DNA of 64,000 nt from Escherichia coli O157:H7 (GTDB taxonomy: Bacteria; Pseudomonadota; Gammaproteobacteria; Enterobacterales; Enterobacteriaceae). Positions 24,394 to 29,346 of this stretch are shown in pieces. The notes under the pieces are model-generated. The model did not search any database and was not told the DNA's origin. It saw nothing but the letters and a program-made list of their open reading frames with translations. A program made the position numbers and the translations under genes. The stretch lies in NCBI RefSeq assembly GCF_013167455.1, contig NZ_CP038328.1. One strand, 5' to 3'. The first letter of the stretch is position 1, and the number at the start of each line of letters is the position of its first letter.

Positions 24394-25845
24394 TCAACTA
24401 AACAACATCGCGATTTTGCCGAGAGCATAACCTATCACCAGCACCGTTAAGCTGATTTTGATAATGCTGGTAATGCTCTGTGGTTTTTCATCCTCATCAT
24501 TTTTTTCTTCATGGTTTTCAGGTGTTGGCTCATCGACATCTTCATCCTCCGGCTCGAGTTTTACTTTCGTCAACAGCATCCGGGTGATAATGGCCTCTAA
24601 TGGATGAGCATCTCCGCCTTCCAGCCTTGTATTAAGACGGGCCAGCATCTCTTGTTTCGGAAACGCTTCAAGTACTACCTGTTCCGCTACCCGATACAAA
24701 TCCAGTAACGGTGAATCTTCTTCTGTCTCGCTACCGACTCTCGATTTCCACCACGCCCATGCTTTGCGTTTGAAGAATAGCGACTCAATAAACGATTGAC
24801 CTAACGGCGATAGTTTTCCGCTATGTAAAATTTCCGCCCATAACAGACGCGTCCGGGCGCTCTCACCAGGAACATATTTCAACGGTTTACCTTGCGCATC
24901 TACCATGCTCCGCGCTTCGATAACCATCACTAATAACGCGAAATAATCCGGGCAATGTTGTGCGCTCCACTGCAACAACAAATTATCGGCTTGTGTAGAT
25001 GGGTAACTTCCCCAGTACGCGCAGAGATCGGTAAGCAGGCTTTCCCCCTCGCCGCAGTACAAACGTTGTGCACACTGGTAATACCGGGCATCTTCGCTTT
25101 CTGGTTCTTCCATTTGCCACTGTTCGGCTACAGGAATGAGTTCCGCCATACCTGTTTGCACCGAGCTGTACCAGCGCAACAGTTTGCGATGTAACTTTGC
25201 ATCATCAGGAATGAACCACGGACCTTCCATCGCCAAAAACGCAGTGACATAGTCAGGATGGTAACGGCAGCAACGTTCCAGCGCGAAGTAATACTCAACA
25301 GTCTGGTTCTGCAACGCAACGGGATATACCAGAAGGCCAAGGAAATCGAAACAATCACCAGCCTGAATGGCCTCAAGAAAAGCCTCCCTTTCTTACTCAT
25401 CTATTCCTTCGCTGTCATTAAACGAATGCCAGTTCAAACGCTCTGCCAGCAAAGAAGCACAATTTAATGAAAGATATCGCGCTTCTATAGCGATTGCACA
25501 CAGCGGCCAGCGTAATTGATCGACATCCTCCATGTTCCAGGTATTTAATTGCTGAATAAATTTCTGCCAGGCGGAGGGCTGAAAACGATCACTTTCTGAA
25601 TCCAGTAATGCCCTGAATACACGTAGTATTTCATGCTCAGTGGCATCATCTTTTTCTTCATCATCTGCTTCCTCGACAGGATTTACCGCCAGTCGCAGGG
25701 CCTCTTCATAGGCCTGGCGTAATGCTTTAAACCCTTGCGGATCGGTTTCGGGATGACATAACGGTAAGCGAGCAAGATAAGCCTGGCGGATAATGTCTAT
25801 TTGCGTCGTGCTTTCAATTTCGAGGATTTGCCAACATGTTTTCAT
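24394..25845 (-). pseudogene. djlC: J-domain co-chaperone DjlC (YbeV) interrupted by an in-frame TAA
   Basis: One frame encodes 150 aa, then a TAA (plus-strand tta at 25393-25395), then 332 more codons; total 483 codons. The aligned djlB residue is Glu (EIDEEELE vs GIDE*ERE), suggesting GAA to TAA. C-terminal hydrophobic tail anchor. Confidence 0.7.
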
Positions 25846-26549
25846 AGGTCGCTCACATCCTTAAGCGTTACCGGGCATTCAGGCTGGACAGTTAATGGCT
25901 GCCAGGGAAGCGTGGCATAGAAACGATCGCTTCCCGCAGCCAGCTCTTCGAACATCCGACTCCCGGCGCTATCGTATTTGTACAGGGTTAGCGCCTCGCG
26001 TAGCGAAGCGTTGTCTTCGCATTGAGAAGATTGCCAGTAGAGACGCCCTAGTGAATAGGCGGAAAAATAGTGCATCCAGCTGTGATAGTAATGGTGAGCT
26101 CGTTCATAGACGCGCGATTGCAGCCATAAACTCTCGTCTTCCGTCAGCCACTTGTTGAGCACACCGACCCGTGACAGAAACCCCATTCGAACATAATCCC
26201 AAGCTTTGATTCCCCCTTCCCCACAACACATAGCGGTTTGGGCAACGAATTGGGTATAAATCAACCCTCTCTCCGAGCCACCAGCAATTAATGCTTTCCA
26301 CTCTTCAGGGGAAGAGCGATGCCATGTCAGATATAAGCCAGCTAAATCATTGGCATGACCATCATCAGTCATCTGATAAATAGTCTGAATTAAATCATCA
26401 CGATTATTTATTCCCCAGGATGATGAGAGATCGAATTCTTTTATCCCGGTATACATTTTTGGCGAGTCATGCGCGGGTTTGCAACCCTGATTAAGTATTT
26501 CCATGGGCGCAGAAAGCGCAAAAAGAAGATATTGTTCTTCCTTATTCAT
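25842..26549 (-). CDS. ybeU: DUF1266-like protein
   Basis: 235-aa ORF; its stop overlaps the djlC start (ATGA); paralog of ybeR. Confidence 0.9.
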
Positions 26550-26650
26550 TTGTTAATAATCCCTTAAGTGCATTAACTGACTACTTTTTTATTATTGATG
26601 AGTATAAACTTGACGCTTTCAAAATAAAAAGAAAATCGAAGCATTCACAC

Positions 26651-27205
26651 ATGAATAAAAAATTAATGTATATATTCACAATTTTTATAGTTGCAGCAAT
26701 TACCTGTATTAGCCAACCCAAGAAAACGACGTTGCGTGATAAAGCCATGGTGAATTATGCCTTTGATTATTTAAGCTCACCGGGCAGTCTTCCATTCACC
26801 ACGGCAGCCACGGAGCTTTCCGCGATTCATGGTCACTCAACGTCGCAATATCGCCTTGGAGAATTTTATCTTCATGGTAGCGACGGTAAACCACTGGATT
26901 ATACACAGGCGAGATACTGGTATGAGCAATCAGCGGAACAGGAAAATCCACGCGCGCAAAGTAAACTGGGGTGGATCTACCTCAAAGGTCTGGGGGTCAA
27001 ACCCGACACCCGTAAAGCAATTCTCTGGTATAAGGAAGCAGCTGAACAAGGGTATGCTCATGCTCAATATACTTTAGGTTTGATCTACAGAAATGGCTCA
27101 GGTATTAATGTTAACCATTATGAATCTCAAAAATGGTTAAAACTGGCCGCCAAACAACATTACAAAAATGCGGAAAGATTACTTGCCGGGCTTCCCGCAC
27201 ATTAA
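26651..27205 (+). CDS. ybeT: Sel1-repeat protein with N-terminal signal/anchor sequence
   Basis: 184-aa ORF with hydrophobic N-terminus [19 protein letters not shown] and Sel1-type repeats (WY..AA.QG). Confidence 0.9.
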
Positions 27206-27214
27206 CGTCGACTG

Positions 27215-28642
27215 TCACCCGAACAGATGGAGTATTTTCCCTATCAAACCAGCAAAGATAAAAATATAGAAAATAATTTTAATGATGCCCAGACAGCCTG
27301 GCCCACCATCGTCAACGGGCATTGGCTGCGGTTGCGGCTCCGGTTCAACAGTTTGCTTCTCGGTAAAATTCGCCGCCTGAATTAATAATCGACGAATAAT
27401 TAATGCTTCCAGTGGACAACGATTTTCTGCATCAAGACGGCTTACGATCGGCATTAATGATTCTTCTGTAGGTTGGCTGGCCTGCACTAATTGTTTGGCA
27501 ACTAGATATAATGGCCATAAGGTATGTTCTGTATCACGCGTGAGTGAGATCCGCGGCTTACATCCTTTGTGCAAAACCATCTCGACCAGTGAACGCCCCA
27601 GAGCAGAGAGTTTTTCATCGCTGAGTATTTCGTATAAATGAAAACGCGTACGGGCGCTGTCGCCGGGGACATAAAGTAGCGGTTTTCCCTGGTCGTTAAC
27701 CAGTTCACGAGCTTCAATCATCATCACCACTAATGGGTAATAATCGACTCGATGCTGACGGCACCATTGCAACATTAAAGCATCCGCCTGAGTGGAGGGA
27801 TACTCGTGCCAGTAGTCACAAAGTTCTGCCAGCAGGCTTTCGCCTTCTCCACAATAGACGCGTTGCGCGTATTCATAATAACGCGCATCTTCATTATCAG
27901 GTTCAGCTTCCCGCCACGACCGGGCGTAATCCAGGAGTTCGGGGATTCCCAGGCGACCTGCACTATACCAGCGGAGTAAATTTCTGTGCAGTTTTGCATC
28001 ATCGGGGATAATCACTGCGCGATGTTGCGCTAAATACAATGTCAGCCATTCTGGATGCGATGACCAAATCCGGGCGAACATTTGGTAAAAATCGATGGTG
28101 TCATTTTGCACGGCAACGGGCAGATGCAGAATGATCTGGAAGTTAAAAACATTTCCCTTCGCAATGGCATATAAAAAGGATTCCAGTTCTTCTTCGTCTA
28201 TTTCCCCGACGTTTTCCTCCTGCAACCACCGCAATCTTTCTGCTAATAACACCACGCACTCGAAGGATAAATGGGCAGTGTTCATGGCTATTGTGCACAG
28301 CGACCAGCGTAATTCATCAATCTCATTCATCGAGCAATAATTTAATTGCTGAATGAATCGCTGCCAGGCGGAGGGCAGAAAACGTTCACTATCAGAGGCA
28401 AGTAACGCACGAAAGGCGAGCAGAATTTCATGTTCTGCTACCTCATATTCTTCTGGTTGCCAAACAGATTTAGCAGGCGACTGCGCAATCCGGAGCGCTT
28501 CCTCATACGCCTGACGAAGTTGTTTAAAACCCTGCGGATCGGTTTCTGGATGAAAGGACGGTAACAGCGCCAGATAAGCGCGGCGGATAATATCGACATC
28601 AGTCGTTTCCTCTATGTTGAGGATCTTCCAGCAATTTTTCAT
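27215..28642 (-). CDS. djlB: J-domain co-chaperone DjlB (YbeS), tail-anchored
   Basis: 475-aa ORF with N-terminal J-like domain, highly similar to djlC, and a C-terminal hydrophobic helix. Confidence 0.9.
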
Positions 28643-29346
28643 AGGTCGCTCATATCCTTAAGCGTTTCCGGGCATGTGGGGTAGTCAGCCAGTGGTTGCC
28701 AGGGTAAGGTCGCGTAATATGCATCGTCACTGGCAAATAATTGATAAAACATATCATTGCCGGAATCGTCGTATTCTTTACGCGCTAAGAATTCACGTAA
28801 TAAAGGCAGATTATCATCTTCGGGAGACTGCCAATATTGCCGACCAAAGGTATAACCGGCAAAGTATTGCCGCCAGTTACTATAATAACGTAGAGCCCGT
28901 AGATGAATACGCGACTGGATCCATAGACTTTCTTCTTCACTCAACCAGTTATTAAGTACGCCCATTCGACTTAAAAAACCCATCCGGACATAATCCCATG
29001 CTTTAATTCCTCCCTCACCACAGCATTCGGCTGTGCTGGCGACAAATTGCGCATAAGCCTGACCTTGCTCATTTAATTCAGCAAGATAGTCACGCCATTC
29101 ACATGGAGAATAACGAAACCAGCGGTGATAAAACCCTGCCAACCGCGCGGCATGACCGTTATCGATCATTCGGTGAATTGTGCGCAGCAGGTCATCACGG
29201 TCATCAATTCCCCAGGAGGAAGAAAGGTCAAAAAAGCGTGTACCTAAATACATTTTGGGTGATGAATGCGAAGGTAAACAGCATTCATTGCGTATTTCCA
29301 TCGGAGTGGAAAGTGCAAACAATATTTTTTGCGACTCCATGTCCAT
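28639..29346 (-). CDS. ybeR: DUF1266-like protein
   Basis: 235-aa ORF; its stop overlaps the djlB start (ATGA); paralog of ybeU. Confidence 0.9.

Follow-up and report, generated by a model that had tools for sequence, protein, structure and literature searches.

The closest described system is the HscC-DjlB/DjlC chaperone system of Escherichia coli (Hsc62/Hsc56), whose genes are the very ones found at the locus described here. DjlB and DjlC are 50% identical and tail-anchored, and carry HPE in place of the HPD motif (PMC8215388, PMC13254874), a tolerated variant known for these two proteins (PMC13254874, PMC10410713); membrane insertion of DjlC has also been reported (PMC8215388). The ATPase of HscC is stimulated by DjlC (Kluck et al., 2002, as cited in PMC8215388 and PMC13254874), an effect reported for DjlC only. 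DjlB, DjlC, and HscC fall under the level of proteomic detection in K-12 (PMC8215388), and ybeU and hscD (djlC) are listed in the SlyA/H-NS regulon as a single operon (PMC5797941). Sensitivity to Cd2+ has been published as the phenotype of hscC and of djlB djlC mutants. Publications and genome annotation already cover the paralogy of DjlB and DjlC, the linkage of both to hscC, and the operon of ybeU and djlC, and an earlier note on this DNA, which pointed out the two paralogous units, adds little to them. The DUF1266 partners YbeU and YbeR, the ATGA coupling, and the conservation of the DUF1266, J-protein, and HscC triad are absent from the reviews of the system (PMC8215388, PMC13254874).

A similar arrangement, a specialized Hsp70 encoded adjacent to its dedicated class C J protein, is that of HscA and HscB in the isc operon. 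Unlike the HscC system, this pair has no DUF1266 protein and no membrane anchor, its J protein carries HPD, and it has a known client, IscU. Coupling by termination and reinitiation at ATGA-type overlaps operates at trpE/trpD, trpB/trpA, and in many other operons. The gene pairs considered here resemble such coupled pairs in their same-strand cistrons, 4-nt ATGA overlap, and Shine-Dalgarno (SD)-like element inside the upstream ORF; they differ in the long SD spacing (10–12 nt), and for them coupling is a prediction from sequence.

In the window, a stretch of 64,000 nucleotides from E. coli O157:H7, the locus is an AT-rich accessory hscC island between rihA and ybeL (Table 1). We consider it probable that it holds an ancient, duplicated DUF1266-J module of the HscC system, in which the ATGA overlap is older than the duplication, translation of the two genes is inferred to be coupled, the junction is under constraint, and decay has set in in O157:H7.

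Table 1. Coordinates of the features of the hscC island in the window.
Feature	Position	Strand	Evidence or remark
hscC (Hsp70 homologue HscC/Hsc62)	22664..24334	+	Pfam HSP70 E=1.6e-116, RefSeq; convergent with djlC
djlC (ybeV/hscD), HPE-type J-domain co-chaperone with C-terminal tail anchor, pseudogene here	24394..25845	-	
TAA nonsense codon in djlC (E151*; GAA in K-12-like strains)	25393..25395	-	
14-nt identity coding for J-domain H-P-E-T-D-P	25736..25749		identical to 28533-28546
ATGA overlap of ybeU stop (TGA) and djlC start (ATG)	25842..25845	-	TCAT on + strand
ybeU, DUF1266, 235 aa	25842..26549	-	Pfam PF06889 E=3.1e-45, 154.9 bits
Shine-Dalgarno-like AAGGAT within the K-D codons of ybeU	25857..25862	-	
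ybeT, Sel1-repeat, signal-peptide-like N-terminus	26651..27205	+	Pfam Sel1 E=1e-30
djlB (ybeS), djlC paralogue, intact, 475 aa, tail-anchored	27215..28642	-	
ATGA overlap of ybeR stop and djlB start	28639..28642	-	TCAT on + strand
ybeR, DUF1266, 235 aa, ybeU paralogue	28639..29346	-	Pfam PF06889 E=1.6e-47, 162.4 bits
ybeQ, Sel1-repeat, divergent from ybeR, pseudogene here	29511..30488	+	TAG at 29664-29666, W52*

According to the earlier note, ybeU-djlC and ybeR-djlB are paralogous along their full length. Its ORFs and coordinates for all four genes were reproduced, and a pairwise DNA alignment of 24394-26549 with 27215-29346 bears the claim out: similarity runs along the whole length and is not restricted to short motifs, with 65% identity over 2,067 ungapped columns of the global alignment. 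Identity over the ~2.1 kb is 65% when the units are freely aligned and 58% when they are aligned by codon; it peaks at 0.70–0.83 near the junction and J domain and is lowest at the 3′ end of the djl genes (0.42–0.55). YbeU and YbeR are 60% identical without a gap over 235 aa (BLASTP, E=2e-107), and K-12 DjlC and DjlB are 49% identical over 483 aa (BLASTP, E=2e-155; 49–51% across comparisons). Synonymous sites between the two units are saturated, NG86 dS is not computable, and the fraction of conserved residues using the same codon in both copies is 0.42. The start-to-start offset from unit 1 to unit 2 is 2,797 nt. “Tandem” is an apt word insofar as the homologous segments have the same orientation, but ybeT splits the units in Escherichia and detectable homology ends at the CDS boundaries, the upstream regions showing no similarity (alignment score 9, with shuffles averaging 9.7). 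A larger duplicated unit of three genes, including the Sel1 genes, was rejected: the 36% similarity between YbeT and YbeQ is generic, matching any repeat with any other, and in Salmonella and Citrobacter ybeT is absent and only one Sel1 gene is present. YbeT carries a hydrophobic segment at residues 3–23.

The age of the duplication can be read from related genomes. In Salmonella and Citrobacter, the two units lie head-to-tail at one shared chromosomal site, spaced by 12–72 nt, and ybeT stands between them only in Escherichia. In both the DUF1266 and the J-protein trees, the copies group by position and not by species; for example, the hscC-proximal copies of the three genera cluster with bootstrap values of 80% (DUF1266) and 99% (J protein). 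Sites compared between E. coli and Citrobacter agree, 132 supporting orthology versus 51 that group the paralogues. A single-copy module with a convergent hscC downstream is found in Klebsiella, Budviciaceae, and Pseudomonas; Klebsiella spallanzanii carries one such single unit. These data point to a tandem duplication that would have taken place before the split of Escherichia, Salmonella, and Citrobacter, ybeT probably having been gained later between the copies in Escherichia. The two units could instead be separate arrivals of related modules through horizontal transfer: divergence between the paralogues is high, and the island is accessory, AT-rich (45–48% GC against 51–53% in the flanks), and absent from 963 E. 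coli genomes, about 18% of the complete ones. Such an origin is nevertheless highly improbable given the shared head-to-tail arrangement and site in Salmonella and Citrobacter, and given that both paralogue clades nest inside Enterobacteriaceae relative to Budviciaceae and Pseudomonas. Purifying selection acts on both copies in Escherichia, with dN/dS between E. coli and E. whittamii of 0.10–0.11 for djlC and ybeU and 0.06 for ybeR; for djlB, the value is 0.21 within E. coli (O157 versus K-12).

The earlier note had further stressed that both units keep the same 4-nt ATGA stop/start overlap in nearly identical DNA. Both observations were confirmed. The 31-mers it quoted (25839-25869 and 28636-28666) are identical at 30 of 31 positions, a match of which none is expected in shuffles and which is the best 31-mer of the entire alignment. 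The 31-mer also contains the longest run of identical codons at conserved residues (10 codons; permutation p about 0.03). This run, together with the fact that the Escherichia paralogues are 94–97% alike over the 31-mer and only 77–90% identical to their positional orthologues in Salmonella and Citrobacter, would suit gene conversion between the E. coli paralogues over a short tract. We regard such a tract as improbable, since strong conservation of this junction extends to all enterobacterial units (74–100% identical; 90% mean column identity in a 43-nt alignment of 15 units) and the ATGA with its SD-like motif can be followed out to Pseudomonas. Furthermore, a quartet analysis of E. coli and Citrobacter counted, up to 60 nt from the junction, one site that groups the paralogues against five that support orthology, no excess of the former, the trees give no sign of concerted evolution, and no exact match exceeds 17 nt. 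As judged from these alignments, the near-identity is the mark of a deeply conserved constraint and not of recent duplication or gene conversion. The junction would be a place of stacked constraints, where a conserved protein C-terminus, the SD-like motif, the overlapping start and stop codons, and the beginning of J-domain helix I coincide.

The overlap itself reaches far beyond the enteric duplicates. ATGA was found at all 30 junctions compared in Escherichia spp., Klebsiella, Leminorella, Pragia, Limnobaculum, and ~20 Pseudomonas; further Salmonella, Citrobacter, and metagenome loci have 4-nt overlaps, confirmed as ATGA in the aligned Salmonella and Citrobacter junctions. Judging from this distribution, the overlap predates the duplication, and the SD-like AAGGA(G) in the last DUF1266 codons was probably present by then too: an equivalent AAGGAG/CAGGAGG motif lies 10–12 nt upstream of the ATG in the Pseudomonas and Budviciaceae loci. 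In ybeU, the AAGGAT hexamer lies 11 nt from the djlC ATG (12 nt after AAGGA). The spacing of 10–12 nt exceeds the optimum, and the motif falls on conserved K-[DE] codons and may simply follow from the amino acids encoded there.

How much the overlap says about regulation is a separate question. ATGA is the commonest type of operon overlap, and each of its bases is under the constraint of a start or stop codon, so that it may be mutationally trapped and need imply neither a fixed ratio of the products nor their interaction. Indeed, because most mutations would hit a start or stop codon, the overlap is self-stabilizing and its conservation overstates selection for coupling; the suboptimal SD spacing likewise fits an overlap without regulatory meaning. 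For both E. coli units, an RNA hairpin (CGCUUA/UGAGCG) with the SD in its loop is predicted, with invariant stems and weak z-scores. It is not supported: covariation gives it no backing, the two natural variants break its pairs, and neither Pseudomonas nor Pragia has it. Against a merely trapped overlap stand its invariance at every junction examined, in lineages whose proteins are only 37–45% identical, the conservation of third-codon positions near the junction, the strictly kept order of DUF1266 before J gene with a nearby convergent HscC, and the retention of the pair as a unit in each duplicate, with congruent trees. We hold an overlap without regulatory meaning to be rather unlikely, and the comparative data strongly support selection acting on it. 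Under the preferred reading of a coupled module, ribosomes ending on the DUF1266 ORF would re-initiate at the overlapping AUG, and the J protein would be made along with its DUF1266 partner and never in excess of it. This coupling, as well as a YbeU-DjlC complex, is what we infer from gene order only. The stoichiometric co-expression of each pair that the earlier note read from the junction is likewise a prediction. Promoter and terminator scans returned no more sites at the locus than in shuffles.

YbeU and YbeR match PF06889 over their full length, far above the cutoff of 27 bits, and the AF2 model of YbeU is all-alpha (pLDDT 89.9). DjlC and DjlB are called J proteins in RefSeq and in the literature; with Pfam DnaJ they score 20.3 and 22.3 bits (E=6e-4 and 1.4e-4), short of the gathering score of 27.8 bits, and PDB J domains match them only with E of 0.05 or worse. 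Both carry HPE (H31-P32-E33), which is invariant in 17 homologues. A hydropathy scan places a transmembrane-like segment at residues 457–483 of DjlC and 446–475 of DjlB, and a C-terminal membrane anchor appears in every J protein scanned in this way, as a single helix in enterics and as DUF805 elsewhere. HPE, tail anchor, and ~50% identity all match the literature on the HscC system. In 25 of 26 related loci, the J gene is followed by a convergent HscC gene, which abuts it in most cases and is 1.3–3 kb away in three Budviciaceae loci. The ancestral module would thus have been a DUF1266 gene followed by that of a membrane-anchored HPE-type J co-chaperone of HscC, the third Hsp70 system, and the DUF1266 protein is probably a subunit or adaptor of the tethered J protein that recruits HscC.

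Within PF06889 at large, of which YbeU and YbeR are full-length members, the association with J proteins and HscC was seen only in the YbeU-like subfamily. Distant members have DUF1266 fused to TPR repeats, M54 peptidase, or Cu_amine_oxidN1, or repeated in tandem, and not to a J domain, so that partnership with J proteins is no intrinsic property of DUF1266. A common origin of DUF1266 and the C-terminal region of DjlB/DjlC was rejected (hhalign probability 1.8%). A defence identity was rejected as well: HscC, DjlB/DjlC, YbeU/YbeR, and YbeQ have no defence-system match in PADLOC-DB, and YbeT has one sub-threshold match. The triad of a DUF1266 gene, an ATGA-overlapping J gene, and a nearby convergent HscC, kept from Pseudomonas to Escherichia, points to DUF1266 as an overlooked HscC component and gives a testable hypothesis on how HscC is targeted. 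Tentatively, and with the balance slightly against it, YbeU-type DUF1266 proteins may be obligate, co-translationally assembled partners of membrane-anchored HPE J proteins, serving as adaptor, regulator, or substrate selector in a conserved three-component gamma-proteobacterial HscC system, of which the enteric duplication made two specificity variants. If so, the HscC machine (DUF1266, J protein, and Hsp70) would have a component that accounts of the third Hsp70 system have so far left out.

In E. coli, the locus is often deleted or pseudogenized, and the O157:H7 genome studied differs from the system described elsewhere in that djlC is a pseudogene (RefSeq “internal stop”). The in-frame TAA at codon 151 occurs in 308 of 5,426 genomes, all O157:H7/O55:H7-type, as counted with a 41-nt allele-specific query. 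Coupling at unit 1 could therefore give only a 150-aa J-domain fragment without the membrane anchor, and with ybeQ also interrupted, only the ybeR-djlB pair is still able to work as designed. Neither stop codon is mentioned in the earlier note; in K-12, all the genes are intact. The HscC system is decaying in this genome.

Locus states were counted with junction-specific BLAST queries. Besides the two-unit form, the states of the locus are the fusion, a 2.8-kb deletion, loss of the island, and nonsense alleles. The earlier note had called the direct repeats a substrate for recombination and proposed screening strains for single-unit or fused variants. Such a variant is real: about 90 of the 5,426 complete genomes, BL21(DE3) and REL606 of the E. 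coli B lineage among them, have one frameshifted djlB′-′djlC fusion with its crossover at the 14-nt identity. The repeats are a poor substrate all the same, the longest exact match being 17 nt. As this frameshifted hybrid is all that is present, BL21(DE3), REL606, and relatives are without an intact HscC J protein. These strain differences, namely the BL21-type fusion, the E151* allele of O157:H7/O55:H7, and the loss of the island in ~18%, bear on the phenotyping of hscC, djlB, and djlC. A class of matches at 90–95% identity, considered as a second breakpoint, consisted of ordinary partial matches to djlC/ybeU. Among the 5,426 genomes, there is a single fusion breakpoint, and larger deletions at the locus are commoner than the fusion.

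The units ybeU-djlC and ybeR-djlB are paralogous along their full length, as the earlier note had claimed: each of the four ORFs is found where it had placed it, as are the two ATGA overlaps (TCAT on the + strand), and when 24394-26549 is aligned globally with 27215-29346, DNA identity is 65% along the entire length (58% in a codon-constrained alignment). YbeU and YbeR are 60% identical with zero gaps (E=2e-107), and DjlC shares 49-51% identity with DjlB over a span reaching from the J domain to the C-terminal hydrophobic tail (E=2e-155), so the likeness is not confined to short motifs. 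The 31-mers at the two junctions differ by a single mismatch, and neither the rest of the window nor the shuffles contain a look-alike. The junction window contains the best 31-mer anywhere in the unit-unit alignment and also its longest stretch of exactly matching codons (10; permutation p ~0.03). The observation is real and its structural reading right, except that the units are not strictly tandem, being separated by ybeT; the DNA upstream of ybeU has no detectable similarity to that upstream of ybeR. Both the paralogy and the operon had been described before, overlaps of the ATGA type are common, and the first unit is defective in this O157:H7 genome. Three things are mildly new: how deeply the DUF1266-J-HscC triad is conserved, when the duplication took place, and which variants strains carry, the BL21 fusion among them.

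Layout of the hscC island and sites within it (window coordinates)
Feature	Position	Strand	Description
rihA		+	flank of island
hscC		+	Hsp70 homologue
REP-like palindrome	24336-24380		between convergent hscC and djlC
djlC		-	pseudogene, internal stop
djlC stop	25393-25395		TAA, codon 151 (E151*)
Fusion crossover	25736-25749 / 28533-28546		14-nt identity
Junction 31-mers	25839-25869; 28636-28666		ybeU-djlC; ybeR-djlB
ATGA overlaps	25842-25845; 28639-28642		TCAT on + strand
Invariant third positions	25866 + 25851; 28663 + 28648		alignment columns 13 + 28
ybeU		-	DUF1266
ybeT	26651-27205	+	Sel1 repeats
djlB		-	intact
2.8-kb deletion	27343-30150		djlB-ybeR-5' ybeQ
ybeR		-	DUF1266
ybeQ		+	pseudogene, internal stop
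ybeQ stop	29664-29666		TAG (W52*)
ORF antisense to ybeQ	29557-30144	-	195 aa
ybeL		-	flank of island
leuS		+	flank of island

A scan with a YbeU/YbeR profile, one genome per species, yielded 27 loci from Escherichia spp., K. spallanzanii, Leminorella, Pragia, Limnobaculum and about 20 Pseudomonas species. In 26 of them a J-protein gene comes after the DUF1266 gene; the exception is a truncated contig (L012, labelled Paenibacillus sp. USDA918EY). At its end (9001-9387), L012 carries a 98%-identical E. coli ybeU fragment within a long open frame; contamination or chimeric assembly is the likeliest source. A convergent hscC lies downstream in 25 of the 26 DUF1266-J loci and adjoins the J gene in most; the distance is 1.3-3 kb in Pragia and Limnobaculum, and no such hscC was found at the Leminorella locus (L013). 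The ATGA junction is present in 30/30 cases listed, with an AAGGA(G)/CAGGAGG motif 10-12 nt upstream that is coded by conserved L-K/Q-[DE] codons, and a soil-metagenome contig also keeps the gene order and the 4-nt overlap. The enteric J protein ends in a single tail-anchor helix; the non-enteric one (~900 aa) has a multipass DUF805 membrane domain at its end. From these comparisons, the overlap predates the duplication.

Among 15 enterobacterial units, mean identity over 43 nt at the junction is 90%. Four constraints are stacked there: the protein C-terminus TLKDxSDL, the Shine-Dalgarno (SD)-like motif, the shared start/stop and the start of J-domain helix I (MKxCW). The near-identity thus stems from constraint and does not indicate recent exchange. 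Both E. coli copies are predicted to form a small hairpin that has the SD in its loop. A Thr (ACG) and a Ser (AGC) codon near the DUF1266 gene end have synonymous third positions that are invariant in the 15 units; these two positions would pair with one another in this hairpin, which no covariation among the units supports.

The duplication itself is old. Codons are identical at only 42% of the residues conserved between the units, and NG86 dS between ybeU and ybeR is saturated and not computable. At the same site, Salmonella enterica and two Citrobacter-type genomes have ybeL, a Sel1 gene, DUF1266-J-DUF1266-J and a convergent hscC, with units 12-72 nt apart and ybeT absent. Neighbour-joining trees unite the hscC-proximal copies found in Escherichia, Salmonella and Citrobacter (bootstrap 80% for DUF1266, 99% for J) and leave the distal copies as a looser group, with which the single unit of Klebsiella spallanzanii is placed. 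Quartet counts favour orthology: for Escherichia and Citrobacter they are 132 for orthology vs 51 for paralogue grouping and 59 for the third topology. From trees, quartets and the shared two-unit locus together, the duplication is older than the split of the three genera, the copies have not undergone concerted evolution, and ybeT is a later insertion in Escherichia. Purifying selection has acted on both copies: in the comparison of E. coli with E. whittamii, dN/dS is 0.06 for ybeR and 0.10-0.11 for djlC and for ybeU, and that of djlB, comparable only within E. coli, is 0.21 (O157 vs K-12). In Escherichia sp. MOD1-EC7003 (L008, 2648-4003), a pair of ORFs flanked by ybeL and ybeQ is similar to the DjlB N-terminus (47% identity) and, for the remainder, to DjlC (25%); these may be the pieces of a third J-protein gene in a cryptic lineage. 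A Salmonella locus (L035) has a 412-aa gene without Pfam hit between hscC and rihA (15082-16320) and extra genes (SAF, GD_AH, KdgT, sigma-54 activator) in the leuS-ybeL interval; the borders of the island thus vary among genera.

Among 5,426 complete genomes, 3,693 have the two-unit locus at least 80% covered, 963 (e.g., Nissle-type strains) lack the island entirely, with rihA abutting ybeL, and 565 carry the 2.8-kb deletion, whose ends show no microhomology. The proposal that the repeats are a recombination substrate holds insofar as about 90 genomes have a single fused unit, consisting of ybeR and a hybrid of the djlB 5' end and the djlC 3' end. The crossover lies within TGCGGATCGGTTTC, coding for J-domain HPETDP, and the hybrid is frameshifted via a one-base slip in an adjacent out-of-register AGGGTTT. 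The breakpoint is identical in all carriers, among them BL21(DE3) (L039, NC_012971.2 637074-639228), REL606, C41/C43 and a number of natural isolates; a single ancestral event is therefore indicated. Exact matches shared by the units reach at most 17, 16, 15, 14 and 13 nt, shorter than efficient RecA recombination usually requires; with a single breakpoint, the repeats are therefore a genuine yet poor substrate. The E. coli B lineage (BL21, REL606, C41/C43, NEB Express; loci L039, L002 and L040) retains just ybeR and the frameshifted hybrid, together with a ybeQ pseudogene, so that HscC is without an intact J-protein partner there, of which no mention was found in the searchable literature. 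Three to four matches to the locus were on records labelled plasmids, and strain AVS0542 (H131) has a further partial variant.

Unrelated deletions and point mutations are a commoner route of decay than recombination between the repeats. The djlC stop, missed by the earlier note, which had the ORF span right, replaces GAA of K-12-like strains; a 41-nt allele-specific query found it in 308/5,426 genomes, all of O157:H7/O55:H7 type. Strain GN25 has a djlC frameshift. The ybeQ stop, likewise missed, replaces TGG of K-12-like strains, and different, independent stops in BL21-type and L003-type strains suggest that this Sel1 gene decays recurrently. The ORF antisense to ybeQ, for which no support was found, is probably spurious.

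HscC ATPase is stimulated by DjlC, hscC and djlB djlC mutants are Cd2+ sensitive, and HscC, DjlB and DjlC are all below proteomic detection in K-12 (PMC8215388, PMC13254874, PMC10410713). DUF1266 is hardly mentioned in the searchable literature. The YbeU structure model is confident and all-alpha (pLDDT 89.9), YbeU has no homology to the DjlB/C C-terminal region, and no island protein matched PADLOC defence models. With 1,874 representatives at an E-value of at most 1e-3, the DUF1266 family contains proteins fused to TPR repeats, which recall the neighbouring Sel1 gene ybeQ, to an M54 peptidase or to other domains; none of ten sampled members is fused to a J domain. Because gene order and overlap are invariant, we infer that the DUF1266 protein may serve the membrane-anchored J protein as its dedicated partner, and that the pair would be made by termination-reinitiation at the ATGA overlap.

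GC content is 43-50% in island genes vs 51-53% in the flanks, and 28% in both regions upstream of ybeU and ybeR, as would suit members of the H-NS/SlyA regulon, to which they have been assigned and in which 'ybeU-hscD' is entered as one operon (PMC5797941). The REP-like palindrome (GCCGGATGCGGCGTAAATGCTGCATCCGGC) has a similar counterpart between rihA and ybeL in island-less strains (L004, ~5957-6000). The YbeT N-terminus is signal-peptide- or lipoprotein-like, whereas YbeQ looks cytoplasmic; in a 2025 preprint ybeT was one of the top hits of TraDIS with phage Arnold, but the Keio mutant had no phenotype (10.1101/2025.12.01.691526).
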